From an uncultured virus (IMG/VR IMGVR_UViG_3300009993_000002) (lineage: Duplodnaviria > Heunggongvirae > Uroviricota > Caudoviricetes): DNA of 64,000 bases. Below are positions 35,475-53,829 of this stretch, in pieces. Under the pieces are notes generated by a model. That model was given only the letters and a program-made list of their open reading frames with translations. It was not told where the DNA came from and searched no databases. The stretch lies in the IMG/VR virus record IMGVR_UViG_3300009993_000002, one strand, 5' to 3'. The first letter of the stretch is position 1; every line of letters starts with the position of its first letter. A program made the position numbers and the translations under genes.

Positions 35475-35678
35475 TCACTCTGCCACGTTTTCCCCCGCGT
35501 TGACCAGCAGCTCATCCACCGCAGCCAGGGCAAAATTCCGCACGACATCCACCTCGTGCTTCAGGCCGAGGATCTTGCGGGCCCGCTCGATCCGCTGCTT
35601 CTCGGATTCCGTGAAGCGGGCGACGATTCGCTTGTCTCGCTTCTCGTCGCCCTGCTCCGACTTGGGGCGTCCGGACAT
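35475..35678 (-). CDS. MobC/MobA-like ribbon-helix-helix protein
   Basis: 'GRPK...RDKRIVARFTESEKQRIERA'. Confidence 0.6.
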   Translation of the reverse strand: MSGRPKSEQGDEKRDKRIVARFTESEKQRIERARKILGLKHEVDVVRNFALAAVDELLVNAGENVAE

Positions 35679-35685
35679 CAGGGCC

Positions 35686-35910
35686 TCACTCGGTGTAGTC
35701 GATGCCGGAAACGGCCCGGCTGCCCGGTCCGCTTGCCGTGGCACTGCCCGTGTTCTTGACGACGATCCGCTGGCCGCGCCGGGGCGGCGGTCCGACGTAG
35801 CCACTCACGGCCCTGCCGCCGTCGGCTTCCGTGACCGCCCCCGTGTTCTCGACGACCAGGGCCCCGCTCTCGCGGTTGAAGAACCGCGCGATGCGATCGA
35901 TGGCTCCCAT
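35686..35910 (-). CDS. Small protein with internal duplication
   Basis: Two copies of VV(E/K)NTG.(V/A)T...G.RAVSG. Confidence 0.5.
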   Translation of the reverse strand: MGAIDRIARFFNRESGALVVENTGAVTEADGGRAVSGYVGPPPRRGQRIVVKNTGSATASGPGSRAVSGIDYTE

Positions 35911-35963
35911 GAACTTCCCTTCCGTTTCGGTGAGTTCAGTCTATGGCAGCCATCTCGCTGGCG

Positions 35964-36386
35964 TCAATCCATCTCTCGGTACTGCTGGCCGGGAGAGGAC
36001 ATGAGGGCGAACACGACCGCGACACCGGCTATGGCCAGGTGCATCAGGTCGAACGTGAGGAAGGCGGTCACAGCGCTCAGACCAGCCACGATCCACATGC
36101 CGATGTACAGGCGGTAGTCGTGGATCTTGTGCTCGACGACCTCCTCGCGGATATACGGGGACTCCTGCTGGATCAGCTTGGTCCGCTCGTAGGCCATCAT
36201 CTGGGCCCGCTCGACCGCCTCGGGTCCGAAGGAATCGCCCTGGCCGACCGGCATGGTCGGCACGTCAGGGCGCGCGGGGGCCACGGGCGGCCGGAAGTCC
36301 ATCGTGGGCAGCTCGTCCTGGGTACGCGTGTACGCCAGGGTCCGGCGCGTCGTCGAGCCGTAGACCTCGTCCTTGTCGTACGTCAC
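35964..36386 (-). CDS. Membrane protein (2 TM)
   Basis: Two C-terminal hydrophobic segments. Confidence 0.55.
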   Translation of the reverse strand: MTYDKDEVYGSTTRRTLAYTRTQDELPTMDFRPPVAPARPDVPTMPVGQGDSFGPEAVERAQMMAYERTKLIQQESPYIREEVVEHKIHDYRLYIGMWIVAGLSAVTAFLTFDLMHLAIAGVAVVFALMSSPGQQYREMD

Positions 36387-36460
36387 CGGAATCGCATCAC
36401 CTTTCCCTCCACTTCCATATCTGATTGTGCGCTAGAACCAGGCCATTCGCCAAGAGCAGA

Positions 36461-36484
36461 AAAGCCCGGCCGGAGCCGGGCCTT
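36461..36484 (-). terminator. Intrinsic terminator
   Basis: GCCCGGC-CGGA-GCCGGGC with a T-run on the - strand. Confidence 0.6.
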
Positions 36485-36486
36485 CC

Positions 36487-37200
36487 TCACATCGACAGCA
36501 GAACCAGGAGGGCGTTCGAGGCCATCGCCACTCCGATGGCCGGACCCTTCTCGGCCGCCGACCCTGATGCCACGATCCCGCCCAGAAGCCGGATGTTCCA
36601 CCAGCGCTTCCCCTGGATGCGCAGCGGCCAGAAGGCGGGCACGCCACCCGCCGTGCAGCCGTCGGCCACCACGTGGCTGACGTATCCGCCAGTCACTGCC
36701 AATGCGATGAGCCAGGGATTCAGGTACAGAACGGCGCCAACGGCACACACCGCAGCACCCAGTGCGACCAGTCCAAGGCTCTTGCGGTAGAGCGGCCACA
36801 GCATGAAAACGCCGAACGCGGCGACCGCGCCCATCGCCACCGGAGACAGGAGGGAAGCCACGTACACGAGGATTCCCATGACCACCGACGCCAGCAGAGT
36901 GTGCGTCAGGGTGCGGTGGTACGGATCCCTCTTGTTGATCAGCTTCCACCGGATGTAACTCCGGTCCCTGCCCACGGATGTGGCATCGACGACCGTCTTG
37001 CACAGCCTGTGGACGACCTTGTGGACGGGCTTGCCCAGAGCTTGCGTCGCGCACGCTTTCGGGTGGTCGAGGTCGGGCATCAGCGAGAAGCCAGCCGAGA
37101 TCGCGCCCATCACGGCACCCTGGAGGATGCTGGCGTTCTGTGTCACGACGAGGCCGACCGGCGCCGAGGCGCCGATCGCCGCGTGCACGGTGCCCCTCAC
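36487..37200 (-). CDS. Membrane-bound metal-dependent hydrolase (YdjM family)
   Basis: 'H..G', 'PDLDHP', 'HRTLTHT', 'SHVVAD..T..GVP..WP'. Confidence 0.85.
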   Translation of the reverse strand: MRGTVHAAIGASAPVGLVVTQNASILQGAVMGAISAGFSLMPDLDHPKACATQALGKPVHKVVHRLCKTVVDATSVGRDRSYIRWKLINKRDPYHRTLTHTLLASVVMGILVYVASLLSPVAMGAVAAFGVFMLWPLYRKSLGLVALGAAVCAVGAVLYLNPWLIALAVTGGYVSHVVADGCTAGGVPAFWPLRIQGKRWWNIRLLGGIVASGSAAEKGPAIGVAMASNALLVLLSM

Positions 37201-37526
37201 TGGATCAGCCTGGCGCTGAGGACGTTCGGGCTCTTCTGGACGAGGGTGGCGAACGCCTGTGCCGAGATCCACTCCTCCCCGTGGTACGACGCCTGCCACG
37301 TGTAGTCGGTCAGCCGCTCCGGGGTTTCGAGGATCGTGTCGTCGTCGGCGGGCCCCCTGCCGATGCTCACCACAGCCCGGTCGAGCTGCATGGAGTCACC
37401 CGAGAGAGGGAGTGCCAGCATGTCGGGCCACGCCACCTCGACGGCGACCTTCCTGTGGCGGCTGAGCGGCTTCAGCAGCTCAACCTCCAGCAGCAGAACG
37501 CCCGCTCTCTTGTTCCTCTTGCTCAC
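37197..37526 (-). CDS. Hypothetical protein
   Basis: Coupled to the downstream hydrolase; purine-rich RBS. Confidence 0.5.
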   Translation of the reverse strand: MSKRNKRAGVLLLEVELLKPLSRHRKVAVEVAWPDMLALPLSGDSMQLDRAVVSIGRGPADDDTILETPERLTDYTWQASYHGEEWISAQAFATLVQKSPNVLSARLIQ

Positions 37527-37589
37527 GTTTTTCCCTTTCCGCTCGTCTTGCGAGCCGATGACATCGGGTCATCCGGCCGGGCTTCTCGG

Positions 37590-38135
37590 CTACGGCTTCT
37601 TCGGTTCGCCGTCGGTGAGGCCGTAGCGGGCCGCGATGGAGGCGATGTCCTCGCCCCGCAGTCCGGCCGTGAGAACTTCGGTGATCTGCTCCGGGGTGAG
37701 GCCGTGTTCCATGAGTTCGATGGATGCGATGAACGACTTCGCGATCTCCATCGGGACTCCCAGCGCGACGGAGATCGCGGTGGCCCGGTCCTGGCCCGCC
37801 TCCTTCGCCTTGGCCACGATCTCCTTGACCTGGGGCAGGAACTGCCTGGAGAAGACGCTGACGGAGGCCATCGCCCAGTCCTCGCCCGCCTTCACCGCCT
37901 TCATCATCCGCTCCTGGAAGTCCGCCTCGGCGGCCTCCGGGCTGCTGGCGTTCCGCAGCGTGGCGCTGACCCGCTCGATGAGGAACTTCGTCGCGACCTC
38001 GGCGGGCATTCCGAAGTCCTTCGCGACTGCCTGAATCGCGTGCTGGTCGATCTCCTGCGTGAGCACGGTGTCCTCGGAGACCTCGACGGAAACCTTGATG
38101 GTCGGGTTTCCCATTTCGACGACTGTCTTCTTCAT
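37590..38135 (-). CDS. Hypothetical helical protein
   Basis: AGGAG RBS, GC3 bias. Confidence 0.55.
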   Translation of the reverse strand: MKKTVVEMGNPTIKVSVEVSEDTVLTQEIDQHAIQAVAKDFGMPAEVATKFLIERVSATLRNASSPEAAEADFQERMMKAVKAGEDWAMASVSVFSRQFLPQVKEIVAKAKEAGQDRATAISVALGVPMEIAKSFIASIELMEHGLTPEQITEVLTAGLRGEDIASIAARYGLTDGEPKKP

Positions 38136-38155
38136 GGTGATCTTCTCCTGCTTCG

Positions 38156-38449
38156 TCAGCTATCGGTCTGGCCGAGGAATGTGTCCCCGAACTCTTCCTT
38201 AATTGCCTGGTCCATCAGGGCGAAATCCCCGAGTCCCTGCGACCGGCCATCGGGAAGCTCGACCCGGACGTAGACCCGCAGGGCCCGGCCGCCCGATGCG
38301 TATTCGGCATCGATTGCCATCTTGAGGGCCGAGTCTGCATCGCGGGCTTCCAGGGAAACCTCGTCGTGCTCCAGGTTCTTGATCCTGGTGGGGTTGCCGA
38401 GAATCGGCCTCTTGCGGCGCCAGATCTTTACCTTGAATTCGGACATCAA
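38156..38449 (-). CDS. Hypothetical protein
   Basis: Overlaps the NlpC/P60 stop. Confidence 0.5.
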   Translation of the reverse strand: MMSEFKVKIWRRKRPILGNPTRIKNLEHDEVSLEARDADSALKMAIDAEYASGGRALRVYVRVELPDGRSQGLGDFALMDQAIKEEFGDTFLGQTDS

Positions 38450-39048
38450 GCCACCCTCGTCGCTCCGAAGTAGTCGGACATGTAATGCACGTCGTTAATG
38501 CGGATCAGCGTGCCGGTCCGGGGGGCATGCAGCATCTTGCCGTCACCGATGTAGATCCCCACGTGATGGATCGAGCGCGAGTTTCCTTTCTGGCCGAAGA
38601 AGACCAGGTCACCCGGCTTCAGCTCATTCCAGGAAGGGTGCACGTTGGTCGTGTTGTACTGGTCGTTCGCGACGCGGGGGATTCGGATGCCCGCCTTGGC
38701 GTAAGCCGCCTGTGTCAGGCCCGAGCAGTCGAACCGGCCGCCCTGCGACGCCGTACCGGTGCCGCCCCACAGGTACGGAACGCCGATCTTCGTCCGGGCG
38801 TACGCGATGGCCACGGCCGCAGCGTTGCTGGAGCGCAAGGTCGAGACATCGCTGGCGTCACGCTCCTGGCGCTTTTTCTCCTTGGCTCGCTCCTTCGGTG
38901 AATACCAGTTGATCTTCTCAATCGCCGGATTCGTGTTGGCCGTGGCGTTGGAAATGGGACTGGCATTCAAAGCCGAACAGGCAGCGGCCGAAGGTACGAG
39001 CAGCGTCACGGAGGCAACCGCGAGGGCTGCTTGTTGGGTCCGGTTCAC
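38446..39048 (-). CDS. NlpC/P60 cell-wall peptidase, probable lipoprotein
   Basis: Signal peptide ending AAAC; 'GVPYLWGG', 'FDCSGL', 'PGDLVFF', 'HVGIY'. Confidence 0.9.
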   Translation of the reverse strand: MNRTQQAALAVASVTLLVPSAAACSALNASPISNATANTNPAIEKINWYSPKERAKEKKRQERDASDVSTLRSSNAAAVAIAYARTKIGVPYLWGGTGTASQGGRFDCSGLTQAAYAKAGIRIPRVANDQYNTTNVHPSWNELKPGDLVFFGQKGNSRSIHHVGIYIGDGKMLHAPRTGTLIRINDVHYMSDYFGATRVA

Positions 39049-39680
39049 TGCTCGTACTTCCTCGTCTTCTGTTCGATCATTTTTACGTAGGTGTAGGTCT
39101 CGCACTTGGCGAAAGAACACGGCGGGACGCCGTTGTACTGCTTCACCCGGAAGCCGCCCGCGTTGTATCCGGCGAGCATGTTTTTCCAGGTGGGGCCCGG
39201 CACGTTCTTCAGGCCGTTCGCGAGCTTGCAGTCCAGCGTCGCGGCCGAAGGGATGGCGTCTTCGGGGTCGTACTTGTTGCGCTTGCCGTCCCCGTTCGCG
39301 TCGATTCCCTCGGTGGCCCACGTGCCGTCGATGAACTGGGCCATGCCCTTGGCGGAAGCCGGGGAATCCAGCCGCCCGTCGATGACTTCGGGCTTGAATC
39401 CCATGCTTTCCTGGTCGAGCTGGGCCGCCAGGAGGGCCGGGGTCAACGTCTTGCACTTGTTGCCCCACTTGTTGATCAGTTCTTCCCAGCGCTTCTTCGG
39501 AACCGAGCCGGGCCGGATCGGGGCGGACGTGCCCGTGAACTTGTAGTTCCCGGTGGTCTCCTGCCTAGGGGGCGCCGCAACGGATGCGGCAGACGGGACC
39601 GCCGGAATGAAACCGGTGACGGCCTGAACTGCCCCAACTGCGAGAAATACGCCGACGAATGCTCCGCCTGCCCTGCGCAT
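39045..39680 (-). CDS. Lytic transglycosylase (SLT), secreted
   Basis: 'AAQLDQES', 'AKGMAQF', 'LAGYNAG', 'ETYTYV'; hydrophobic N-terminus. Confidence 0.85.
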   Translation of the reverse strand: MRRAGGAFVGVFLAVGAVQAVTGFIPAVPSAASVAAPPRQETTGNYKFTGTSAPIRPGSVPKKRWEELINKWGNKCKTLTPALLAAQLDQESMGFKPEVIDGRLDSPASAKGMAQFIDGTWATEGIDANGDGKRNKYDPEDAIPSAATLDCKLANGLKNVPGPTWKNMLAGYNAGGFRVKQYNGVPPCSFAKCETYTYVKMIEQKTRKYEQ

Positions 39681-39704
39681 CACGTTCCTCCCTTCTCCGA
39701 GGTC

Positions 39705-39735
39705 CACTCTAACATTGACCTAGGCCAGTCAACAA
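39705..39735 (-). promoter_or_regulatory. Promoter of the SLT-NlpC operon with palindromic operator
   Basis: On - strand TTGTTG-18nt-TAGAGT; CCTAGGCC at 39719-39726 within TTGAC...GTCAA. Confidence 0.55.
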
Positions 39736-39766
39736 GGTGACCCTGTACCGGAGTTGAAATGCAGAA

Positions 39767-39792
39767 CGGCCGGACCCCGAAGAGTCCGGCCG
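39767..39792 (-). terminator. Intrinsic terminator-like hairpin
   Basis: CGGCCGGAC...GTCCGGCCG. Confidence 0.6.
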
Positions 39793-39807
39793 CTCGAACC
39801 GCCCACC

Positions 39808-40386
39808 TCAGTGGAACGGGCTCTGCATGAGCTGCGGGATCCAGTTGCCGATCTGGAGCGTGATCTCGGCCCAGGTCCCGCCGCCGAGCGGGAAGAAGAA
39901 CCCGCAGATGGCGCCGTACATCAGATCCTGCTTGTCGTCGTCCTTGTTCCGCATCGCGAGGAACCCGAGGAAGAGGCAGATACCTCCGGCTCCGATGTCG
40001 GACAGGATCGGCCACTCGGCCAGTGCCATGACGAGGCCCTGGAACCAGTCGACCAGGTTGATGACGAACCCACCGGTCGAGCTGACGATCGACGTCATGG
40101 CCCACATTCCCACGAGGAATGTCATTGCGGACCGCCAGTCGAACCCTTCGCTCGGACCTCCGTGGAGCTTCGTCATCATGCGGCTGGTCGGCTGCTGCAC
40201 AGCCTTAGTCATCAGCGTCTTGGTCAGCCCGCCCCAGAGGAACATCTGCTGACCCTTCTTGTTCCCCTTGATGCAGAGGAACGAGAGCACCAGCAAGATG
40301 ATTCCGAAGCCCGCCATCGTGGTGTGACCGATCCACGAGTTCTCCGGAACCTGGATCTGCTGCTGCTGCGTCAGTGCCAGAAACAC
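39808..40386 (-). CDS. Multi-pass membrane protein
   Basis: Four or more hydrophobic segments. Confidence 0.6.
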   Translation of the reverse strand: MFLALTQQQQIQVPENSWIGHTTMAGFGIILLVLSFLCIKGNKKGQQMFLWGGLTKTLMTKAVQQPTSRMMTKLHGGPSEGFDWRSAMTFLVGMWAMTSIVSSTGGFVINLVDWFQGLVMALAEWPILSDIGAGGICLFLGFLAMRNKDDDKQDLMYGAICGFFFPLGGGTWAEITLQIGNWIPQLMQSPFH

Positions 40387-40611
40387 CTTTCCCTCACCTT
40401 CCCAGTGGGGCCGCCCTTCGACGGCCCCACTAACTCACCGACCGGGACCGGCGGGCTTCAGGATCGGCAGCCCACCGTGGTCGTCGTCCTCTCGGAGCAC
40501 GACTCGTCCCCTTTCCAAGCGGCTCGTTCGTCCGCTTCGTACCTCCGGCCGGATGCGAACCGGCTTCCAGCGGTAGCTGGGCTGCCACACGGCAGCGAAG
40601 GCCCTTGTGCA

Positions 40612-41574
40612 TCACCAGGCGGCGCCCGGTGCGTAGAGCAGGATCCCGGTGACGATCGACGCCAGCGGGATCATGAGCACGGCGTGGAAGATGCCCGGCC
40701 CCATGCTCTGGGACTTCTCGCGCTCCTCCTCCGACATGGCCGACCGCTCGCGGTTGAGTCGTTCGATCCGGTCAAAGACCCACATGGTCGCGTAGAACGC
40801 CATGCAGAACAGACCGGCGACCCAGAACTGCCACATCTGGAAGGTCCACGGCGAACCGAAGATCGCCGTCACCTCGTCGGGGTACGAGACCCCCACGAAG
40901 AACAGGACCGGAACCAGCCAGGCCGAACGAGTCAGCCACCTGATGCTGAAGGCGACCAGGCGCCCCCGGTACGTGCTCTGGGCCAGGTATCCGGCAACCT
41001 GGTTCCGGGTGAACATCAGGATCATGGGGGTGAGCCCCATGATCGCCGCCCAAATCAGGCTGCCGAGCCGGTCCGACTCGTACGCCATGCCGATCGTGTC
41101 CCTGAACCACCTGCCAGGGCCGTTCAGGATTCCCCATCCGGTGGTCGAGGTGCCGAAGCGGATTCGCTCGTACAGAGCGGTCAGAATCTGCGGTCCGGCA
41201 ACCCACGACATCACCGAGGAGATCATGAACGAAGTGACGTACGGCCGGGTCGTTCCGTTGGCCGGGTCCAACCCGTTCCTGATGGCGGCAGCAGCCGCCT
41301 GGACGGGCTTCATCACTTCGGCCGCGAGCTTCTTCTCCTCTGCGACCTTTTCCTTGACAGGGGCCAGAATCTTCTCGGCTTCCTGGCGTACCTTTTCCTT
41401 CTTGTCCTCCGCCTTGTCCTTGTCCTTCGCCCACTTGTCCTTGGTCGAGGACAACTTCCCCTTGAGCGCCTTGATGTCGCCCTTCAGGGTGCGCGGCGGC
41501 TTCCGGTCCGACTTCTTGAGGTGGACTGTCGGGGCCACCGTCGGCTTCGGCGGAATGACTTCCTTCGTCGCCAC
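40612..41574 (-). CDS. Multi-pass membrane protein with Lys-rich N-terminus (Spd-like)
   Basis: Charged coiled-coil N-terminus plus about 5 TM segments; GGAGG RBS; divergent from the GntR gene. Confidence 0.55.
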   Translation of the reverse strand: MATKEVIPPKPTVAPTVHLKKSDRKPPRTLKGDIKALKGKLSSTKDKWAKDKDKAEDKKEKVRQEAEKILAPVKEKVAEEKKLAAEVMKPVQAAAAAIRNGLDPANGTTRPYVTSFMISSVMSWVAGPQILTALYERIRFGTSTTGWGILNGPGRWFRDTIGMAYESDRLGSLIWAAIMGLTPMILMFTRNQVAGYLAQSTYRGRLVAFSIRWLTRSAWLVPVLFFVGVSYPDEVTAIFGSPWTFQMWQFWVAGLFCMAFYATMWVFDRIERLNRERSAMSEEEREKSQSMGPGIFHAVLMIPLASIVTGILLYAPGAAW

Positions 41575-41589
41575 GTTCCTCCCTCCGGT

Positions 41590-41760
41590 CTACGGCTTTC
41601 CGTCAGACGCCAGCCCGATCGTTTCGGTGACGCGGTCCTCCAGGATCTTGATCGCCTTTTCCACTCCGGCGGTATCCTGGAATGAGTCATAACCGGGGAC
41701 AGAAGTGGTCCCAGTTGCGGCTGTGGTGCCTTCCTCTTCCTCGTTCCGGTTCGTCCCCAT
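41590..41760 (-). CDS. Small acidic protein
   Basis: AGGAG RBS before MGTNRN... Confidence 0.45.
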   Translation of the reverse strand: MGTNRNEEEEGTTAATGTTSVPGYDSFQDTAGVEKAIKILEDRVTETIGLASDGKP

Positions 41761-41796
41761 GACGTCTCCTCGATCACCACTGGCGTTGTGGTGTTC

Positions 41797-41825
41797 AGCA
41801 TGACACAATACGGCCTAGGCCACAA
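41797..41825 (-). promoter_or_regulatory. Promoter of leftward operon overlapping a GGCCTAGGCC operator
   Basis: On - strand TTGTGG-17nt-CATGCT; perfect palindrome at 41812-41821, just upstream of the divergent GntR gene. Confidence 0.6.
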
Positions 41826-41844
41826 GCGAAAGCGAGGAGAAAGA

Positions 41845-42579
41845 GTGAGCGAGCAGATTCCCAAGTACCGTGCCATTGCGGCACATTACCGATCCAGGAT
41901 CACCTCTGGTGAGCTGGCGCCGGGTACCCCGCTGGAGTCGCGCCGGAGGCTCGCCAAGATACACAGGACGTCGCGCGTCACCATCGACAAGGTCGTGGAA
42001 CTGCTGACGGCCGAAGGTGTTCTGGAGCCCTCCAGCGGCAACCGGCCGCCCGTCGTGGCGGACATCTCGGGGCGTACGGCGACGGTCCAGGACCGCGTGG
42101 GTAACTACGCCGCGAGCGGCCGGGCGCTCGGAGCCCGGGAAACGTCGGAGATCCTGCGGGTCGAGAAGGTTCCGTGCCCTGCCGACATCGCCCCCGTTCT
42201 GGGGGTCGAGCCCGGCGAGGACGTGGTGTACCGGGAGCGGCTGAACAAGATCGACGGCAAGCCGGTCGCCACCGGCCACTCCTACTACCCGCCCGAGGTG
42301 ACCGCCGTGACGCCCGAGCTGGCGATGGCGGACGCGACTCCCCGTGGTTCGCGCGAGCTGGCTGCCGAGCGCATGGGCTCCCGGCAGAAGGACCTGATTC
42401 CCGTCATCACGTCGCGCCTGGCGACCGACCGGGAGCGTGAGCTGCTGGAGCTGAAGGGTGCGTATGCGATCGTCACGCAGACCGCACGCCGGGTGCTCCT
42501 GGCGAACGGCAAAGTCGTCGAGGTCGCCGTCAAGGTCAACGAGGGCAGCAGGCCGGTGTCGTTCCACGTCCCCCTGTGA
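41845..42579 (+). CDS. GntR-family (HutC/UTRA) regulator, KorA/TraR-like
   Basis: 'YRAIAAHYRSRITSGELAPGTPLES.R.LA....SRVT' wHTH plus C-terminal UTRA domain. Confidence 0.9.
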   Translation: MSEQIPKYRAIAAHYRSRITSGELAPGTPLESRRRLAKIHRTSRVTIDKVVELLTAEGVLEPSSGNRPPVVADISGRTATVQDRVGNYAASGRALGARETSEILRVEKVPCPADIAPVLGVEPGEDVVYRERLNKIDGKPVATGHSYYPPEVTAVTPELAMADATPRGSRELAAERMGSRQKDLIPVITSRLATDRERELLELKGAYAIVTQTARRVLLANGKVVEVAVKVNEGSRPVSFHVPL

Positions 42580-42600
42580 GGACCCCATGCGGACATGCAG

Positions 42601-42630
42601 AGCCCCCGCCGCTTCACTGCGACGGGGGCT
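42601..42630. terminator. Bidirectional terminator between convergent genes
   Basis: AGCCCCCG...CGGGGGCT. Confidence 0.6.
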
Positions 42631-42638
42631 TCGGCTTT

Positions 42639-42824
42639 TCAGGAGACCTCTCCGTTGTCCATCAGGGACTGGGAGAGCAGCACGAGTTCCTGGCGTATGA
42701 CCTTCAGCTCTTCGGCCGTGTACTTCTGGTTCAGGATCTCCGGCGTGAAGCCATCGCTGATCACCGCGTCAACGATGGCCCCGGCCCACCACTTGGCGAT
42801 CTTCTTTGCGTACCGGCGGTTCAC
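42639..42824 (-). CDS. Small hypothetical protein
   Basis: Coupled to the upstream ORF. Confidence 0.45.
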   Translation of the reverse strand: MNRRYAKKIAKWWAGAIVDAVISDGFTPEILNQKYTAEELKVIRQELVLLSQSLMDNGEVS

Positions 42825-43540
42825 GGCTCGACCAGCTTGAAGGCGTCTTCACCTCGGGCCAGCTCTTCCCTCATGGACTCGTAGTTCCGGTAGTAGCGCT
42901 GCGGGTGCAGCCAGATCAGATGTGCCCGCAGCTCGTCGTCCCATCCCCGCTCGTGCTCGTTGTCCACCTTGACGCACTCCGCCGGGTTCACGCCGTACAG
43001 CCAGGTGAGCGCACCGAAGCCGATCCAGTGGCGCTGACCGTCGTTGACGGAGGTGACCCACCCGGGGACCACGGCGTACTTCTTGCCCTTCAGGCTGCGC
43101 GGGTAGAGCGGGTAGTCACTGGGCTCCGGCTCCCCGGATTCGCGTGCCATCCGGTGCGCCAGCGACCCCTTCTCGCCGAACGGCTTGAAGGGCGTACGGC
43201 GCTTCGCCTCCAGTCGGCCGTCGTCAAGGGACCATCCGTCGGGGATCGGCTTCCAGTTCTTGTCGGCCTTCCTTTTCTCGGGGTCCCACAGGCTCGCCCC
43301 TCCGGCCTTCAGCCAGCTCCGGATGTCGGAGAGGTACGTGGAGGCGAAGACGATCTGCCGACGGTGCCGGTCGAGCGCGGAGAACCGGGTGTCGATCACT
43401 GACCAGTACCCGAACTCCGGCTTGCTGTCCTCGGCGTCGGAGTAGTACGCCTCGACGATCAGGTGGTCATGACCGTGCACCCGGTACTTCTTGTCGTACT
43501 TCCCGGTCGACGGCAGCCGGTGCAGCAGAGGTTCAGCCAC
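42821..43540 (-). CDS. Hypothetical protein
   Basis: GC3-biased ORF in the operon. Confidence 0.55.
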   Translation of the reverse strand: MAEPLLHRLPSTGKYDKKYRVHGHDHLIVEAYYSDAEDSKPEFGYWSVIDTRFSALDRHRRQIVFASTYLSDIRSWLKAGGASLWDPEKRKADKNWKPIPDGWSLDDGRLEAKRRTPFKPFGEKGSLAHRMARESGEPEPSDYPLYPRSLKGKKYAVVPGWVTSVNDGQRHWIGFGALTWLYGVNPAECVKVDNEHERGWDDELRAHLIWLHPQRYYRNYESMREELARGEDAFKLVEP

Positions 43541-44237
43541 TGGACGCCACCACGTTTCCGCTGAAGTCCATCAGGAGAACCTGGGCGGGCGCCTTCTTCG
43601 AGGCGAACTCCACCGTGCCGCTTGCCGTCTCGCCGGGCTCGATCCGGCGGGAGCTGGGCGCCAGGGTGCCCTCTCCGATGACCGCCGGGCGGCCATCCCC
43701 CTTCACCATCGACGACATGACGACCACGGCCTCGTCGGTGCCGTTGTGGATCGTCAGCCTGACCAGAGCCCCCACCGAACCGGATCCGTCCGGCAGCGCA
43801 GTGACGGTGACGACCTTCGGAGCCTGCACCACGGGAGAGCCTGAAGCGTCCTGTGTCGCCTCGGAGGGTCCACCCCCAGCGGCCGGAAGGAAGCCCTCCT
43901 GGGAGGCCGCAGGAGGGGCGGCGGAGCCTGTCTGGTCGTCGGGCATCATGGTGAACACCAAGACTCCGACAGCGGCGGCCCCGGCCGCGCCCAGGAGCAG
44001 GGTCCTGCGCCGGTCCGGCTTCTGTGAAAGGCCCGCCTCGGGCTCTTCCCTTTCTTCCTGCGGTCGGGTGTCAACGAAGCCCCCTTCGGGTGCACGCCTC
44101 CACTCATCCGGTTCCCGCGACAGGTCTTCTCCGCTGCTGGCGATGCGCTCCATGTCGCTGCGAGCGCGGGTCTGCCATCCCGCCGAGTCATCGTCGCCGT
44201 TTCGGCGTACCGGGTCCGTGTTCCACCAGTCGGTCAT
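43533..44237 (-). CDS. Single-pass membrane protein with extracellular Ig-like (DUF4352-like) domain
   Basis: TM after RRR; C-terminal beta-rich 'VRLTIHNGT...IEPGETASGTVEF'. Confidence 0.55.
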   Translation of the reverse strand: MTDWWNTDPVRRNGDDDSAGWQTRARSDMERIASSGEDLSREPDEWRRAPEGGFVDTRPQEEREEPEAGLSQKPDRRRTLLLGAAGAAAVGVLVFTMMPDDQTGSAAPPAASQEGFLPAAGGGPSEATQDASGSPVVQAPKVVTVTALPDGSGSVGALVRLTIHNGTDEAVVVMSSMVKGDGRPAVIGEGTLAPSSRRIEPGETASGTVEFASKKAPAQVLLMDFSGNVVASSG

Positions 44238-44440
44238 TCCTGCCCTTTCTTCATCTTGCGGGCCACGTTGAAGCCCACTCCCGTTACGGCCCCGGCGACA
44301 ACTGCACCGGTTGCCGGAATGCCGATCGCCGAAAAGGTCGCGGTGTCGAGTGCCGCGCCCAGGAGAGCTGCGGTCGCCAGACTGTCGTCGACATCCTCGA
44401 CCGCTTTTGCGATGGCCCAGGTGACGACTTTTTCCATCAT
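44234..44440 (-). CDS. Small hydrophobic Gly/Ala-rich protein
   Basis: Coupled overlaps at both ends. Confidence 0.5.
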   Translation of the reverse strand: MMEKVVTWAIAKAVEDVDDSLATAALLGAALDTATFSAIGIPATGAVVAGAVTGVGFNVARKMKKGQE

Positions 44441-44751
44441 GAGACAGACTCGGTTTTCGCCGTGACGGTGTACGCGGCCAAGTACTCGTAGCTCCAGATC
44501 GAGTGCTCGCCGTCGTCCGCCCCGGACTCGACCATGGCGTAACGCATGATCGTGTACTCCATGCCGATCCGATCGCGGTAAACGAACCCGATGGGGAAGA
44601 GCGGGAGCGTCGGGTGCTCGCGCCCTCCCTTCGGGGAAACCTTGATGATCGCGTGTCGGATGGGATCGTTCGGGTCGTCGTCACTGACGGGCTGGATGAC
44701 AACGAGATTGGCGGACCCGGATCCTCCGGATGCTTCGATTCGCCATGCCAT
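44437..44751 (-). CDS. Hypothetical protein
   Basis: GAGGAG RBS before MAWRIE. Confidence 0.5.
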   Translation of the reverse strand: MAWRIEASGGSGSANLVVIQPVSDDDPNDPIRHAIIKVSPKGGREHPTLPLFPIGFVYRDRIGMEYTIMRYAMVESGADDGEHSIWSYEYLAAYTVTAKTESVS

Positions 44752-44815
44752 GTCATTCTCCTCTCCTACTTCAACACAACCAGAATACAGGCAAGTTGGG
44801 GCACTTAGAAAGCAC

Positions 44816-44845
44816 GAAGCCCCCTCCCGTGAGGGAGAGGGCTTC
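44816..44845 (-). terminator. Intrinsic terminator-like hairpin
   Basis: GAAGCCC...GGGCTTC downstream of the SpdB2-like gene. Confidence 0.55.
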
Positions 44846-44861
44846 TGGGGTGCGGCCGGAC

Positions 44862-46055
44862 TTAGAGCCCCATGGTCGCGCGGTGAGCCTCGGTGGCCTG
44901 CTCCAGGAACTCGTTCAGGCCGTTCTGCGCGAACCACTCCAGGGAGAAGTCCGTCGTGGCCTCGGTCACCCGGGGGGCGCCCTTGCCGATGGCCTTGGCG
45001 AAGGCCGCCTTGGTCAGGCCGCCCTCGGCGGCGTCGGCCGCGTAGTACCGGGCGGCCAGCATCGCCTTGCTCTGCTGCGCCTTGGTCAGGTTCAGCTCGG
45101 CGAAGACGTCACCGCCGCCCTCCTCCTCCGGCTCGCTGTCCTCGCCCTTGGTGAGCTGGGCCCGGGAGGTCACGTGACCCTGGATGATCTGGATCCCCAG
45201 GGGCTGGCGAAGGCGCAGCTCCTGCTCGGCCTCCACCCGCTCCAGCGAGATCTCGGTCTGGGTGCGCAGGGTCGCGATCTGGAGTTCGGCACTCAGTCGC
45301 TGACGCATCGCCTTCAGGCTGTTCTGCCCCTCCAGCTCCGCCTTCTCGGCCTCGAACTTCGCGTCGCGCTCGATCCTCTCGCGCTCGATCTGGGCCAGAA
45401 CCTTCTCGCGCTCGACCTCCGCCTTGCGCTTCTCGTCGGCCAGGGCCGCCTCGTGCAGACGCTGCTTCTCCAGCATCTCCGCCTGGTGCTTCTCGGACGT
45501 CGCCTCGACCTTGGCTCGGATGCGCTTCGCCGCGCGGTGCTCAGCGGCGATCTCCGCCTTCTCCTCGTCGGTCAGGTCGGCCGGGCTCTTCAGCCCGTTC
45601 AGGGCCAGCATCCAGGTCAACTTGGTGAAGACTGGGAGGGCCGCCGCGAACATCGCAGCACCTCCGGCGACCTGCGAGCCGTGGTAGCCGAGGAGGCCCG
45701 CCACGAACAGCACCTCGACCCACCCGACGACCGGCAGTGCGTTGAAGCGGTGCCGCTTGCCCTTCTTGCCCGGGATCGTGGCCGGGATCTTCAGGCCCTG
45801 GTACTCGGCCACCATCGTGGCGCTCCAGACGATGTCCATCGTCACGGCCGCCGAGAGGCCGATGAGGCTGATGCCGCCCAGCTTCTCGATCGTCAGTGCG
45901 TCGATCTGGAACAGGTCCAGGAGTGACCAGGTGGTCCAGGCCAAGGATCCGAGGGACAGCAGGCTCGCCATCAGCACGAGGAAGGAGAACCGCTTCGGCT
46001 TGTCTTCCACCGCCACGACCTTCTCGACCATCTCGCTGTTCTCCGTCGTGTCCAT
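44862..46055 (-). CDS. SpdB2-like plasmid spread protein (4 TM, coiled coil, C-terminal HTH)
   Basis: 'SLAWTTWSL', 'MDIVW', 'VGW', 'LPVFTKLTW', then long E/K/R coiled coil. Confidence 0.6.
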   Translation of the reverse strand: MDTTENSEMVEKVVAVEDKPKRFSFLVLMASLLSLGSLAWTTWSLLDLFQIDALTIEKLGGISLIGLSAAVTMDIVWSATMVAEYQGLKIPATIPGKKGKRHRFNALPVVGWVEVLFVAGLLGYHGSQVAGGAAMFAAALPVFTKLTWMLALNGLKSPADLTDEEKAEIAAEHRAAKRIRAKVEATSEKHQAEMLEKQRLHEAALADEKRKAEVEREKVLAQIERERIERDAKFEAEKAELEGQNSLKAMRQRLSAELQIATLRTQTEISLERVEAEQELRLRQPLGIQIIQGHVTSRAQLTKGEDSEPEEEGGGDVFAELNLTKAQQSKAMLAARYYAADAAEGGLTKAAFAKAIGKGAPRVTEATTDFSLEWFAQNGLNEFLEQATEAHRATMGL

Positions 46056-46119
46056 TTTCTCGCTTCTCCCTTTTCCGAAAGCCCCGATTTTTGGAACTCC
46101 GTGTGGGGCGTTACGCATG

Positions 46120-46149
46120 ACTCTGCCAGTGTGGCCTAGGCCGTGTCAA
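46120..46149 (-). promoter_or_regulatory. Promoter of the SpdB2-like gene with GGCCTAGGCC in its spacer
   Basis: On - strand TTGACA-18nt-CAGAGT; palindrome at 46133-46142. Confidence 0.65.
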
Positions 46150-46304
46150 GCGAACCCGGCTATCTTCCTTCCAGAGTGGCGTTCGTCCGTTTCGGCGGCA
46201 TTCGCCAGATGAGAGATGACTTGCCGCCCTACAGTGTCCAGATTCGTCCGATTCGATCCAAGAATCACCGGTCCAGATTCCATGCAGGGCGGCGATCCGG
46301 AAGC

Positions 46305-46736
46305 CTACGAAGAACTGGAGCCCCCGAAGAACTTCTTCCAGAAGGGCCTCCTCTCGTTGCGATGCCTTCCGGAAGGGGCGGGAACCTCGCCGGAAACAAG
46401 GTGGCCAGCGCTGACACCTTCCTCTGCATGGGTTCGTCCGGTTTCGCCTTCCGGAACCTCGGAAGAAGACGGCTCGATGACCGACATGTTCAGTACGTAG
46501 ACGTTCGCCCCCCGGAGTCCGGAGGACGAGAAGCCGGGCTCCGTCCGCAGGAGGCAGGCGCGGGTCAGTTCCGCCCGAGCGCGGACCATCGCGCCCTGCG
46601 TCAGGCCGCTCTCCCTGGCCAGAACGGGAGAGGGGACCTGGGCCCGCCCGATTTCGTTGACGTGGCCCAGCAGGGTGTCCAGCAGCTTTCCTGCCTCATT
46701 GCTGAGGGCCGTGCGGTCGAAGGCGTTCGCGCTCAT
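46305..46736 (-). CDS. Winged-HTH DNA-binding protein
   Basis: 'PSPVLARESGLTQGAMVRARAEL...G...ANVYVL'. Confidence 0.6.
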   Translation of the reverse strand: MSANAFDRTALSNEAGKLLDTLLGHVNEIGRAQVPSPVLARESGLTQGAMVRARAELTRACLLRTEPGFSSSGLRGANVYVLNMSVIEPSSSEVPEGETGRTHAEEGVSAGHLVSGEVPAPSGRHRNERRPFWKKFFGGSSSS

Positions 46737-46840
46737 GCCGTCACCTTTCCAGTGATCGATGTCGGACATCAGCGTACGGCGAAGGGGCACCGGAAGATGC
46801 TCCGGTGCCCCTTCGGGTAGGCCACTTCGGGTGGCCTCGT

Positions 46841-48289
46841 TCAGCCAGCCCAGGGATCGTCGCTGAGCCACCGCGTAATCGTGGACGGATCCACCCCGAG
46901 CATGCGGGACGCTTCGGCCCGGTTCAGATGCTCAGCGGAGATCTCCTCACGCAGCCACGCGATCATCTCGGAACGCGCCTGGTCCTTCTCCTCGGTCGTG
47001 AAACTCGACTTCGGCGCCTGGGAGGCGAAGTAGGCGAGGACGATCGGGTGGTGGCGCCCAGCAGCCCTCTCTGCGGCTTCCTGCCGCACCGGCTCGGCCG
47101 GAACCAGAGCCGGTGCGGTTTCGTCCGGCTCTGGCCCGACAGGCGTCTCCACAGGGGCGTCCACGGCCGTCTCCCCCTCGGGCCCGGACTCGATGTCGGG
47201 TGCCACGATCCACCAGTCTTCGTGCACCGGCTCGTCTTCCATGGGGTACGGCCCGGACGGGGCGAACTGGACCTGCAAGACGCCCTGCAACGGTTGCTGC
47301 ACATCCTCCTTCAACAGGTTGACCTGCGGAGATTCCATTGCAGGGGCCTCTGCATGCAACTCCTGCTGCACCGTCGGCCGCAACGGGGTGGTCGGCTGAT
47401 CGCCGATCGCCCCGTCGTCACTCTCTGTAGATGTCGATACGTCCAGACTTGTCCACCCTGAAGTGGTCTGGTGCAAGTCAGGCCGCACGGGCTCAACATT
47501 CCCCTTGACCAGCGAATATGCGGGTTCGGGAGTGGCCTGTTGCACATCCTTCTGCCGGAACTCCTCAACCGCCGAAACGATGGCGTCGAACGACCGATCC
47601 GATTCCGCACCGTTTGCACCGCTCGAAGTGGCCTGTTGCACGGCCGTCGGCAACACCGCAGTAGGTGCCTCCGGGGCAGCAATCACAACGGTTTCGGGCT
47701 CCAGGCCAGTGGCCTGATGCGGGAGCGACTGCAAATCGGGTCGTTCGATTTGGGCAGTTTCTGTCGAAAATACCGAATCGCCCTCCTCGATTTCGCCGGT
47801 CTCGCTGGATCCCGAGTCCGCGACCTGCGCGTTCTCAATAACGCGCGTCTCCTCTTCCGGCGACGGGTCGACGAGCGTCTTCTTCTCGTCATCGTCACTT
47901 TCCGTATCGGAGTCATCGTCCTGCTCGAAGTCCTGCCATGGCTCCTCGCGGCCCAGCCTGCGCTCGCGGGCAGAGAAGACGGCCAGGCCGACCAGCAGGA
48001 CCAGGAGGGCGCCCACCACAGACTGGAACGTCCCGACGGAGTGGCCGCCGCGCTCCGGGCCGCCCGTCATCGCGCTCGCGACGATCCAGACCGGCGCAAG
48101 GACAACGAGTGCGCGGAACAGCTTGGCCCACGGCGACCTGTGCTCGCCGCTCTCGTCCAGCTCCAGCACCCAGTTCTTGCTGCCGTGCAGACCACGCCTC
48201 AGCATCCTCGCGACGCCCCTGGTGCCGTGCTTCACCTCCACCGAGCGGCGGATTCCGGCAGCCTGCGGGACTCTCATGCGTACAGCCAT
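46841..48289 (-). CDS. Membrane protein (2 TM) with long acidic linker and C-terminal HTH
   Basis: Two TMs; linker with QQAT repeats; 'RAEASRMLGVDPSTITRW'. Confidence 0.65.
   Translation of the reverse strand: MAVRMRVPQAAGIRRSVEVKHGTRGVARMLRRGLHGSKNWVLELDESGEHRSPWAKLFRALVVLAPVWIVASAMTGGPERGGHSVGTFQSVVGALLVLLVGLAVFSARERRLGREEPWQDFEQDDDSDTESDDDEKKTLVDPSPEEETRVIENAQVADSGSSETGEIEEGDSVFSTETAQIERPDLQSLPHQATGLEPETVVIAAPEAPTAVLPTAVQQATSSGANGAESDRSFDAIVSAVEEFRQKDVQQATPEPAYSLVKGNVEPVRPDLHQTTSGWTSLDVSTSTESDDGAIGDQPTTPLRPTVQQELHAEAPAMESPQVNLLKEDVQQPLQGVLQVQFAPSGPYPMEDEPVHEDWWIVAPDIESGPEGETAVDAPVETPVGPEPDETAPALVPAEPVRQEAAERAAGRHHPIVLAYFASQAPKSSFTTEEKDQARSEMIAWLREEISAEHLNRAEASRMLGVDPSTITRWLSDDPWAG
47462..47720. 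repeat. Four degenerate direct repeats AGTGGYCTGNTGC inside a CDS
   Basis: Copies at 47462, 47531, 47627, 47708. Confidence 0.7.
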
Positions 48290-49512: not shown

Positions 49513-49731
49513 TCATGCCGTCTCTACGCGGGTTACGTGGTAGATGCCCGCGTAGATCTCACGCACATCCTCCGCGCTGTCCACCTCGTCCAGCTCGACG
49601 AGGAAGGTGTGGTGCTCGCCCGTCACGTCGGTGCAGGGTTTGCCGTTGACCGGGCACGGCCCGGTCTTCTTGTCGCGCGGGTTGTGCTCGGGGTTCTTGG
49701 CCAGCCTCACCGTGACCACGAAGGTGGCCAT
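49513..49731 (-). CDS. Hypothetical protein
   Basis: Coupled to the NlpC/P60 gene. Confidence 0.5.
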   Translation of the reverse strand: MATFVVTVRLAKNPEHNPRDKKTGPCPVNGKPCTDVTGEHHTFLVELDEVDSAEDVREIYAGIYHVTRVETA

Positions 49732-50198
49732 CAGCCGTTCACCCGGCCGATGTAGACCTTCCGGCCGCCGTACTTGTACTCGGAGATCGGGGCGACGACG
49801 ACCTTGTAGCCCCGGTAGGAGCCGGAGTTGGCGTTCACGATCTTGTTGTTGCCGACGTAGATGCCGACGTGCTTGATGTTCCTCGACGAGGTGCCGAAGA
49901 AGACCAGGTCACCCTTGGCGCGCTTGCTCCAGGAGATGTGCGTGGACTTGTTGTACTGGCCCTGCGCCGTGGCCGCGAGCTTCTTGCCGTGCTTCTTGTA
50001 CGAGTAGTACGTGAGGCCCGAGCAGTCGAAGTAAGTCGGGCCCTTGCCGCCCGCGCGGTACGGGCTGCCCTTCTTGTCGAGGGCGGTATTCAGCGCCTTG
50101 GTCCGTATCGGGGTGGCCGCTTCGGAGCTGGGGGCCAGCGTCAGCACGAGACCGCCGCTCAGGGCTGCGGACAGGGCGACGGAGGTCAGCTTGTTCAC
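49731..50198 (-). CDS. Second NlpC/P60 secreted peptidase
   Basis: Signal peptide; 'GSPY', 'FDCSGL', 'GDLVFF', 'HVGIY'. Confidence 0.9.
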   Translation of the reverse strand: MNKLTSVALSAALSGGLVLTLAPSSEAATPIRTKALNTALDKKGSPYRAGGKGPTYFDCSGLTYYSYKKHGKKLAATAQGQYNKSTHISWSKRAKGDLVFFGTSSRNIKHVGIYVGNNKIVNANSGSYRGYKVVVAPISEYKYGGRKVYIGRVNG

Positions 50199-50724: not shown

Positions 50725-50959
50725 GATCCTCCTTTCAAACGGCCTAGGCCGATCCTACCCGATGGCCTACTTCCGAGGTAGGCCACTTCCTGGGACTGGT
50801 TGCCCCGTTTCGCCCCGATTCGGAGATGCTTCGAATCACAACGAATGCTCCTGAACTAGACATACCGGACCACTTTTTATGGATCTCCGACACGCTACAG
50901 CAGGACATACTGGACTATTTTGGACAGGGCGAATTGGCATGCTTGCGTAGTTTGTCTTG

Positions 50960-52609: not shown

Positions 52610-52711
52610 TCCCCTTTCCTAGAAACAGTCTTGCAGAAAACCGAGAAGTTGTCGAGTCGCTTCTTCGTAGATTCGTGCGAAGCTATGACCATCACACGGA
52701 GGGAGGAACCC

Positions 52712-53812: not shown

Positions 53813-53829
53813 CCACGAGAGGTGGCCAA

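Follow-up and report, generated by a model that had tools for sequence, protein, structure and literature searches.

Little is understood of the way in which a phage infection spreads within a septate mycelium, and a gene block in the genome of an uncultured tailed virus (IMG/VR record IMGVR_UViG_3300009993_000002) raises the question of whether a phage may use parts of plasmid conjugation systems for this passage. The stretch of DNA analysed, here called the window, is 64,000 nucleotides (nt) long, and the block lies at positions 35475-48289 within it. The block encodes a GntR-family regulator, a protein of 397 amino acids (aa) with four transmembrane (TM) segments and several putative wall hydrolases, and an earlier interpretation made from the letters alone (the original prediction) had described it as a Streptomyces plasmid-type spread module in a tailed phage. 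We tentatively read it as a conserved gene block of a non-temperate jumbo siphophage resembling cluster BM, in which conjugation-derived parts would move phage double-stranded DNA (dsDNA) between hyphal compartments, and we place this reading close to, though short of, an even chance. Homology to plasmid spread and control genes and a conserved promoter palindrome were found, and from these we infer that phage DNA may be spread.

The source phage and its relatives

A megablast search with the 12.8-kb region 35475-48289 gave matches to seven Streptomyces phage records, the best being Frankenweenie (87% coverage, 80.4% identity), followed by JustBecause and Kela (85%, 78.3%), and no nucleotide match among plasmids. 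With an identity of about 80% at the nucleotide level, the source virus is related to the jumbo siphophages of Streptomyces in cluster BM, such as Satis, JustBecause and Frankenweenie. These are prolate-headed siphoviruses with genomes of 184-200 kb and 1-kb terminal repeats (PMC6687918). In addition to the phage record matches, the window contains the virion, replication and lysis genes of a tailed phage, as had been proposed: a tape-measure protein (6349-11586), DNA polymerase, primase, RecT-like protein, helicases, a Ro-like RNA-binding protein and a lysis cassette of endolysin (52511-53812) and holin (53776-54207). The proposed likeness to plasmid-phages of the pZL12 type did not fit the lifestyle of the relatives. 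The search for ParA and ParB (PF02195, PF01656) that had been suggested gave no match in 3/3 BM relatives, and the available text of the Frankenweenie paper reports neither integrase nor repressor and describes the BM relatives as non-temperate.

Genes in the window were chosen by third-position GC content and the annotation of relatives. The block was syntenic in 6/6 related genomes compared, and its chance assembly is thereby excluded. Counts over 11 BM-like genomes given below refer to seven BM isolates, three IMG/VR contigs and a Streptomyces cucumeris assembly. The last contains, within the assembly of isolate NEAU-Y11, a scaffold of phage-genome size (Scaffold14, NZ_JANCLX010000014.1, 185,382 bp) with BM-like homologues of the 320-aa membrane protein of the block and of the 397-aa protein; a Tra-like gene is found in the same assembly. 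The scaffold could be a non-temperate phage carried in culture, or contamination.

A membrane protein of the SpdB family

A tblastn search of 72,556 plasmids with the 397-aa protein (44862-46055) found 12 records, all from Streptomyces, aligned over residues 55-194 at 32-42% identity. The match in pCQ3 is a 304-aa "hypothetical" gene product encoded in an operon that is divergent from the block holding a GntR gene and directly upstream of traA/traB, and pSAM1 has the same layout of the two homologues. By BLASTP, the window protein and the pCQ3 protein were 41% identical over 136 aa (E 5e-24), and the latter aligned weakly with SpdB of pIJ101 over 241 aa (E 0.005 in a small database). A large protein collection contained 57 relatives of the 397-aa protein at E <= 1e-3, comprising 51 of phage type (364-427 aa, 47-77% identity), five shorter ones of cellular type and one fragment of the window itself. 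Domain PF27080 was assigned to 11/51 phage-type and 5/5 cellular-type relatives, and both PF27080 and PF27079 are present on pIJ101 SpdB and on each of the 120 SpdB relatives listed; these are precomputed domains, so that the link to PF27080 is one read from relatives and not a score of the window protein. When a profile of 26 members of the phage family was compared by hhalign with a profile of 16 SpdB proteins, the match had a probability of 93.5% (E 2.3e-7) over 138 columns covering the whole membrane domain, and against a single SpdB sequence it had 75% (E 2.5e-5). The motifs D..W, AEYRG, GW, HG, LP…K..W and DP..LTDEE were common to both families in the alignment. The 397-aa protein is an SpdB-family homologue by virtue of its N-terminal four-TM domain. 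Among 50,697 phage records, tblastn matched it in the seven BM phages only.

The protein had been proposed to consist of four TM segments, a coiled coil and a helix-turn-helix (HTH) domain. An AlphaFold2 (AF2) model (predicted local distance difference test score, pLDDT, 74.6) displayed the four TM segments as helices at residues 25-48, 64-86, 107-129 and 132-155, then a single 120-residue helix (163-283) and, after a disordered linker, a C-terminal domain that is helical and compact. The C-terminal domain, which gave a pLDDT of 90.3 when folded alone, had only non-significant structural neighbours: the best VIA rows were DnaA DNA-binding domain IV (Z 6.5, root-mean-square deviation 3.4 over 76/85 residues; 6.2; 6.1), further rows included many HTH regulators at values in the uncertain range of the tool, and most of the weak Foldseek rows were HTH proteins (Rex, XRE, TrpR; E 2.9-8). 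Judged from the model, the domain is plausibly HTH-like and a candidate DNA binder. With the full model, every row retrieved was a generic four-helix bundle or coiled coil (Foldseek E >= 0.57; VIA Z <= 8.1), and a profile search with the family against PDB sequences gave no match. A four-copy complex prediction of the TM domain (residues 20-165) scored 0.00, which speaks neither for nor against oligomerisation. The available text of Thoma et al. (2015) describes the plasmid protein SpdB2 as a four-TM protein that forms an oligomeric pore, binds dsDNA and peptidoglycan, interacts with TraB and is required for spreading within the mycelium and for pocks to form (PMC4447253).

A relation of the SpdB-like protein to proteins of phage phiC31 was considered and rejected: the profile hidden Markov models A1 and A2 matched no open reading frame (ORF) of phiC31, and hhalign against gp25/gp23 gave a probability of 0.3%. 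In the same phage, gp26 (L012 37114-37638), which adjoins gp25 (238 aa), has a GntR winged-helix domain (E 9.6e-17) and no UTRA domain.

A regulator of the KorA/TraR kind

The GntR gene probably starts at GTG 41845, following GAGGAG, and encodes 244 aa in agreement with its relatives. It is divergent from a leftward run of a small ORF and the genes of a 320-aa multi-TM protein and a 192-aa TM protein; the predicted arrangement of a GntR-UTRA gene divergent from a multi-TM operon was thus confirmed by Pfam matches above cut-off and by hydropathy. The protein is 39% identical to the GntR of pSAM1 (E 7e-32), 40% to that of pCQ3 and 32% to KorA of pIJ101 (E 2.8e-14), which has the same two domains, a GntR winged HTH (wHTH) and UTRA. 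A tblastn search of plasmids returned 121 records at E <= 1e-10, all from actinomycetes and 108 of them from Streptomyces. In the top two matches the gene faces away from an spd/tra-type operon, which consists of small function-unassigned genes with a DUF2637 protein at the end. Divergence from an operon of this type is also seen in pSAM1 and in pIJ101, where korA is opposed to tra-spdA-spdB-kilB, and in pCQ3 the GntR gene is one gene removed from the divergent operon; in pCQ3 and pSAM1, homologues of both the GntR and the SpdB-like protein are found together beside traA/traB. By its sequence the phage GntR is of the plasmid KorA/TraR kind. According to the available text of Thoma et al. (2015), all conjugative Streptomyces plasmids encode such a repressor, plasmid TraR represses traB, and the repressor counters toxic traB expression (PMC4447253).

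Homology to plasmid spread proteins, the absence of which the original prediction had named among its refuting conditions, was accordingly found for the SpdB-family four-TM protein and the KorA/TraR-kind GntR.

A conserved palindrome and its candidate regulon

A perfect palindrome, GGCCTAGGCC, is located upstream of the GntR start within a block of approximately 40 nt (41786-41826) that was almost invariant in 4/4 phages, with flanks about 74% identical. When one mismatch was allowed, the window contained 12 matches versus 2.66 expected, 12 being reached in 0/100 shuffles, and 4/4 exact copies lie 14-80 nt upstream of start codons (Table 1). The spdB-like gene, 2.3 kb from the GntR gene, has the same palindrome in its promoter, and it looks like a separate transcription unit because a hairpin with a 13-bp stem follows its stop codon. 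The positions recur in Frankenweenie, JustBecause, EhyElimayoE and three IMG/VR contigs. In 7/7 genomes the spdB-like promoter holds the palindrome within the 18-nt spacer of TTGACA…CA(C/G)AGT, and the SLT promoter holds the same one-mismatch copy between TTGTTGA and TAnnnT, after a conserved hairpin. The site before the dprA-like gene is an exact copy in Frankenweenie, JustBecause and the three IMG/VR contigs and a one-mismatch copy in EhyElimayoE. The promoter hexamers were read by eye, and a sigma-70 promoter scan flagged none of them. Since the position of the palindrome varies relative to the -35 and -10 hexamers, an operator fits better than a promoter element. The DasR box and other operators of the HutC type resemble GGCCTAGGCC, and pSAM1 has CTAG-centred palindromes in the interval separating its GntR gene from the transfer operon. 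The GntR protein is the putative binder of the palindrome, a proposal made from sequence, and the block probably forms one regulon.

Further copies or near-copies with a CCTAGG core were observed at 19953, 25800, 60568, 60591 and 62146, upstream of replication- or RNA-related genes, and those at 19953 and 25800 are one-mismatch copies preceding replication-arm genes, the core being retained also in the one-mismatch copy before the SLT gene (39717); the candidate regulon therefore reaches beyond the block. The GC-rich hairpin CGGCCGGAC…GTCCGGCCG (39740-39790, - strand) before the SLT promoter was conserved wherever the aligned stretch extended that far, and it probably ends the upstream membrane-protein operon.

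The phage GntR is 38-44% identical to many plasmid regulators of the TraR/KorA type and the N-terminal SpdB domain is conserved, both of which would be expected if the two phage proteins mimicked KorA/TraR and SpdB, either silencing or hijacking the transfer of resident conjugative plasmids and actinomycete integrative and conjugative elements or blocking defence-like effects. Such interference is nevertheless highly improbable. The palindrome is conserved in the promoters of the phage itself, most isolation hosts (e.g. S. lividans) need not carry such plasmids, and scans of plasmid loci gave no exact palindrome and, with a looser search for the CCTAGG core, one related site, in pSAM1.

The Tra-like translocase of the relatives

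The original prediction had reported no TraB or FtsK in the window and recommended a search of the rest of the genome. None of the 267 ORFs of the window matched a Tra/TraB gene at E <= 1e-4 when compared with pIJ101, the tra region of pCQ3 and the whole of pSAM1. Beyond the window, a homologue of the pIJ101 Tra type was present in 7/7 BM isolates and 4/4 further BM-like records, that is, in 11/11 BM-like genomes. A scan of two BM genomes for PF01580 gave a below-cut-off match in a gene annotated as "FtsK-like DNA translocase", and Frankenweenie gp156 (433 aa) was 31% identical to pIJ101 Tra over 356 aa (E 7e-45). Proteins of the gp156 type have a C-terminal wHTH (HTH_IclR, E 4.6e-4). Among plasmids the Tra-like protein matched 14 records, all 5-16 kb in size like pIJ101 (13 from Streptomyces and one labelled Pseudomonas), and among the 50,697 phage records it gave 20 matches at E <= 1e-5, all in Streptomyces phages (seven BM and 13 others). 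A one-mismatch palindrome, GGCCTAGGTC, was observed 13-22 nt after the stop codon of the Tra-like gene and before a tRNA cluster in Frankenweenie and JustBecause (L005 12403, L011 32988).

An FtsK-family motor with a C-terminal wHTH could also serve persistence in spores, with the Tra-like motor and its SpdB-like partner pumping phage DNA through sporulation septa into prespores in the manner of FtsK/SpoIIIE and leaving a carrier state there. The 185,382-bp BM-like scaffold in the S. cucumeris isolate assembly fits carriage as well as contamination, and the relatives have no ParA, ParB or integrase as another route to persistence. However, the closest relatives of both proteins are conjugation and spread proteins and not chromosomal FtsK, and one contaminated assembly would account for the scaffold, so that we consider this explanation very unlikely.

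Wall hydrolases and genes without plasmid counterparts

The predicted pair of adjacent SLT and NlpC/P60 genes and the YdjM gene were all recovered; Pfam matches above the cut-offs were obtained for GntR, UTRA, YdjM, SLT and both NlpC/P60 proteins. The SLT protein and both NlpC/P60 proteins carry N-terminal signal sequences, the first NlpC/P60 protein with a lipobox-like …AAAC and readable DCSG and HH motifs, and on account of these signals the three are predicted to be exported enzymes separate from the endolysin.

Counterparts in pIJ101, the pCQ3 region and the complete pSAM1 were sought for the 267 ORFs of the window, and matches were confined to GntR, the SpdB-like protein and, in the lysis cassette, the endolysin and one membrane protein. 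The SLT, NlpC/P60, YdjM and ribbon-helix-helix (RHH) proteins had no counterpart in the plasmid transfer regions compared, and neither the 320-aa protein nor the 482-aa protein (46841-48289) had a tblastn match among plasmids or a usable lead in the ESM Atlas. A search of 1.84e9 representatives gave 27 relatives of the 320-aa protein at E <= 1e-3. Streptomyces genome assemblies were the source of two of these, and a profile search of genome contigs for cellular contexts of this family found only the BM-like scaffold of phage size. Pfam and NCBIfam gave no match for the membrane proteins of the block.

Two labels of the original prediction held in part. The 482-aa protein, proposed to consist of two TM segments, a linker and an HTH, has two hydrophobic helices and an acidic linker, and all HTH family matches at its C-terminal end were below cut-off (HTH_23, E 0.003, 17.7 bits versus a cut-off of 24.6; a weak match to 6ama/6amk, E 0.63). 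The gene of the "MobC-like RHH" is present at 35475-35678, and that label is a weak one, its product having a single below-cut-off NikA-like match (E 0.006, 17.1 bits versus 27).

Possible movement of phage DNA or remodelling of the envelope

If conjugation-derived parts do move phage DNA, the process may be depicted as follows: the GntR protein would bind the palindrome at the gntR/divergent membrane operon, spdB-like, SLT-NlpC/P60-YdjM and dprA-like/NlpC-P60-2 units, and would time or limit products that are toxic in plasmids. After de-repression, the SpdB-like protein would make a membrane channel or platform at septa, and its long cytoplasmic helix and HTH-like end would serve to hold DNA, or else to bring in the soluble Tra-like motor. 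With the cross-wall thinned by the three exported peptidoglycan hydrolases, replicated phage dsDNA would be pumped into adjoining hyphal compartments, and the infection would pass beyond the compartment entered by the virion.

Several observations weigh against this reading. A genome of 185-200 kb is far larger than plasmids for which spreading has been shown, and only 2 of the approximately 20 genes in 35475-48289 have plasmid counterparts. These two, the SpdB-like and GntR genes, match the pCQ3/pSAM1 group, whereas the Tra-like gene outside the block has its plasmid matches among small plasmids of the pIJ101 type. The hhalign match to SpdB ends at SpdB residue 145, and the C-terminal SpdB domain PF27079 was precomputed for 0/51 phage-type and 0/5 cellular-type relatives. 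Exact palindromes in three relatives numbered 6, 5 and 6 versus 5, 2 and 1 for a reversed-pattern control, a modest excess, so that the palindrome argument rests on position and not on number. The palindrome also precedes replication-arm genes (19953, 25800, 60568), and its role may be that of a general phage operator, or a different HTH protein of the block may bind it. In the relatives the Tra-like gene is approximately 19-22 kb from the block, about 3-4 kb past the end of this window, and it is not preceded by the palindrome in Frankenweenie or JustBecause. The hydrophobic helix of pIJ101 Tra spans residues 156-174, and the phage protein starts at about Tra residue 187, without the helix. 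No clusters of clt-like 8-mers near the Tra-like gene were common to Frankenweenie and JustBecause, where the repeat could be shorter or degenerate. Finally, the Tra-like protein was considered as the TraB of the pCQ3/pSAM1 group and rejected, having no similarity to pCQ3 TraB or to the 651-aa protein of pSAM1.

Because of this dissimilarity, different plasmid lineages seem to have supplied the SpdB/GntR pair on the one hand and the Tra-like gene on the other. A bolder statement would be that a lytic jumbo phage built a conjugation-derived apparatus from at least two plasmid lineages, consisting of a Tra motor in soluble form, a septal channel of the SpdB type whose tail binds DNA, exported hydrolases and a KorA-like repressor, for virion-free movement of its genome from compartment to compartment; such an apparatus would be the bacterial equivalent of plant-virus movement proteins. 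In this full form the proposal is rather doubtful.

The main rival reading is a remodelling of the envelope or a host takeover in which no DNA is transferred. The SpdB-like protein would then be a pore-former or membrane perturber acting in superinfection exclusion, holin-like timing or "kil"-like growth arrest, the SLT and NlpC/P60 enzymes would alter the wall in support of growth, lysis or larger plaques, the UTRA domain would time these genes by sensing a host metabolite and the Tra-like protein would serve phage DNA metabolism. According to the available text of Thoma et al. (2015), SpdB2 promotes spheroplast formation and forms pores (PMC4447253). Most genes of the block encode phage-specific membrane or exported proteins without a plasmid homologue, the palindromes before replication-arm genes suggest a general timing regulator, another architecture stands in place of PF27079, and the Tra-like gene is unlinked to the block. 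Yet the repressor, SpdB and Tra, the core of the minimal Streptomyces transfer set, are kept in 11/11 BM-like genomes, the phage already has a separate endolysin-holin cassette, and the C-terminal domain of the SpdB-like protein resembles a DNA-binding HTH, although not significantly. We regard envelope remodelling as possible but on the whole unlikely.

Were conjugation-derived movement of phage DNA to be confirmed, it would represent a virion-independent cell-to-cell movement of a bacterial virus and a new route for the reuse of conjugation genes. If not, the block would still indicate a non-temperate phage that reuses the kil/kor logic of plasmids and exports three predicted wall hydrolases during infection. 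Either way it is a concrete and genetically testable system of three conjugation-type parts and a candidate operator, and its relatives can be cultured and plate on S. lividans, from which pIJ101 comes and in which the transfer experiments with pSVH1 were done.

The FtsK-like gene was already annotated in GenBank, and the available text of Thoma et al. (2015) contains the suggestion concerning actinophage Spd proteins (PMC4447253). The novelty lies in what a non-temperate jumbo phage here combines: a KorA-like repressor, an SpdB-type protein whose cytoplasmic part has a new architecture, a Tra motor lacking its anchor, and an operator-like palindrome, common to several units, that also covers exported wall hydrolases. 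A literature search found no paper linking Streptomyces phages with both FtsK-like and TraB, none describing SpdB homologues in BM phages by title or abstract, and no test of the suggestion of Thoma et al. that phage DNA is spread; the available text of two BM phage announcements makes no mention of these genes.

Features of the block and its surroundings

All genes listed in the original prediction were present where it had placed them or within a few codons, and their positions are given in Table 1 together with those of neighbouring genes and palindromes.

Table 1. Genes, hairpin and palindromes in and around the conserved block (window coordinates).
Feature	Position	Strand	Basis or remarks
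RHH-like protein, 67 aa	35475-35678	-	last gene of leftward run; NikA-like match below cut-off; conserved in 3 IMG/VR relatives
140-aa protein, two C-terminal hydrophobic helices	35964-36386	-	hydropathy; annotated as membrane protein in relatives; no family match
YdjM-family membrane-bound putative metal-dependent hydrolase	36487-37200	-	PF04307 E 5.1e-16; phrog_20744 "hydrolase" E 4.8e-22
Three conserved function-unassigned genes	37197-37526, 37590-38135, 38156-38449	-	no family match at default thresholds; syntenic in relatives
NlpC/P60 endopeptidase, lipoprotein-type signal (…LLVPSAAAC)	38446-39057	-	PF00877 E 5.4e-27; start uncertain by a few codons
Secreted SLT-family lytic transglycosylase (predicted)	39045-39680	-	PF01464 E 3e-9; N-terminal signal-like hydrophobic stretch
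One-mismatch palindrome GACCTAGGCC	39717-39726		spacer of TTGAC…TAGAGT promoter-like site before SLT gene
192-aa membrane protein	39808-40386	-	hydropathy; 75-93% identity in 3 IMG/VR relatives; no family match
320-aa protein, Lys-rich N-terminus, multi-TM C-terminal half	40612-41574	-	hydropathy; downstream of small ORF divergent from gntR
Small acidic ORF, 59 aa, opens leftward operon	41581-41760	-	sequence reading; counterpart annotated in 3/3 relatives
Exact palindrome GGCCTAGGCC	41812-41821		24 nt before GntR start codon
HutC-subfamily GntR regulator (wHTH + UTRA), KorA/TraR-like	41845-42579 (alternative start 41788)	+	UTRA PF07702 E 7.8e-16; GntR PF00392 E 1.4e-6
Three conserved genes: 239-aa (phrog_7644), 219-aa single-TM (43533-44192), 106-aa (44437-44756)	42821-44756	-	
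Terminator-like hairpin, 13-bp stem	44816-44845	-	directly after spdB-like stop codon
SpdB-family membrane protein, 397 aa	44862-46055	-	four-TM N-domain, 120-residue helix, linker, compact HTH-like C-domain
Exact palindrome	46133-46142		in 18-nt spacer of TTGACA…CAGAGT, 78 nt before spdB-like ATG
144-aa conserved function-unassigned protein	46305-46739	-	
482-aa protein	46841-48289	-	Arg-rich N-terminus, 2 TM helices, long acidic low-complexity linker, HTH-like C-terminal end
Second NlpC/P60 endopeptidase, signal peptide	49731-50198	-	PF00877 E 5.4e-24
YAcAr/SLOG protein, "DprA-like" in relatives	50257-50724	-	PF10686 E 7.9e-9; first gene after next palindrome
Exact palindrome	50741-50750		just after TAGGAT -10-like hexamer, 17 nt before dprA-like start
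Exact palindrome	60568		upstream of replication-arm gene start

The YAcAr/SLOG gene heads a palindrome-bearing operon that includes the second NlpC/P60 gene. An SpoT/HD-type phosphohydrolase is encoded at 55517-56137 and is annotated in relatives as a ppGpp synthesis/degradation protein. The Frankenweenie annotation places a "tRNA-Sec (tca)" between two membrane-protein genes (L001 10784-10856); ARAGORN detected no tRNA anywhere in the window, which has a gap of 225 bp (40387-40611) at that place. Window positions 52511-54641 were also compared with pSAM1 (L010 22100-24300): between the endolysin and the pSAM1 amidase, identity is 73% over 199 aa, and the neighbouring membrane protein of the lysis cassette is 48% identical to its counterpart, which points to recent gene exchange between BM phages and phage-plasmids of the pSAM1 type.

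Comparison with known systems

The korA-tra-spdA-spdB-kilB region of pIJ101 from S. lividans shares with the phage a HutC-type GntR repressor divergent from a leftward operon, the N-terminal four-TM domain of SpdB and, in the related phages, a Tra-type motor with a C-terminal wHTH. In contrast to pIJ101, the three phage genes do not form one operon, the spdB-like gene being monocistronic and the Tra-like gene 19-22 kb away; the phage Tra-like protein is without the N-terminal 185 residues including the TM segment, and the SpdB-like protein has the 120-residue helix and HTH-like domain in place of PF27079. Homologues of SpdA, KilB and KorB of pIJ101 were not found in the comparison.

The plasmids pCQ3, pCQ4 and pSAM1 (approximately 85-90 kb) are among the closest plasmid homologues of the SpdB-like protein (39-42%) and GntR (39-40%), and in pCQ3 and pSAM1 the two genes are about 2 kb apart, as in the phage. 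The plasmid SpdB-like proteins, however, are about 300 aa long and without the long helix, and pSAM1 has ParA/ParB, an integrase and its own TraA/TraB, unlike the non-temperate BM relatives without ParA/ParB. The record of pSAM1 (CP012383) is classed as "non-mobilizable" by MOB-suite, yet it contains terminase, major capsid protein and tail genes as well as ParA/ParB and integrase, and one gene in its GntR-SpdB-like transfer-type region carries the annotation "type IV conjugative DNA transfer protein". pSAM1 is a phage-plasmid; among the three, phage genes were verified in pSAM1 only. Plasmid-phages with tra genes are known, e.g. pZL12. Among phages, the Woodruffvirus members TP1604, YDN12 and Mischief19 have the same Tra-type motor, but at full length (632-682 aa).

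Bifunctional wall hydrolases with SLT and NlpC/P60 (or CHAP) domains, such as CwlT, occur in conjugation systems of Gram-positive bacteria. Systems of the CwlT type resemble the phage in combining a lytic transglycosylase with NlpC/P60, in export and in the position beside membrane proteins, and differ in that the phage has two genes. No VirB4- or VirD4-type ATPase was seen in the block, in which no search aimed at such ATPases was made, and the pairing of SLT and NlpC/P60 is also found in actinophage tail proteins (PHROG tail families).

The traR-spdB3-spd79-spdB2/traB region of pSVH1 can be likened to the phage by its description only, which in the available text of Thoma et al. (2015) includes a GntR repressor acting on repeats in a divergent intergenic region (PMC4447253). 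The same text raises the possibility that actinophage Spd homologues spread phage DNA, and the four-TM, pore-forming Spd protein of pSVH1 that interacts with TraB is the functional model for the phage protein.

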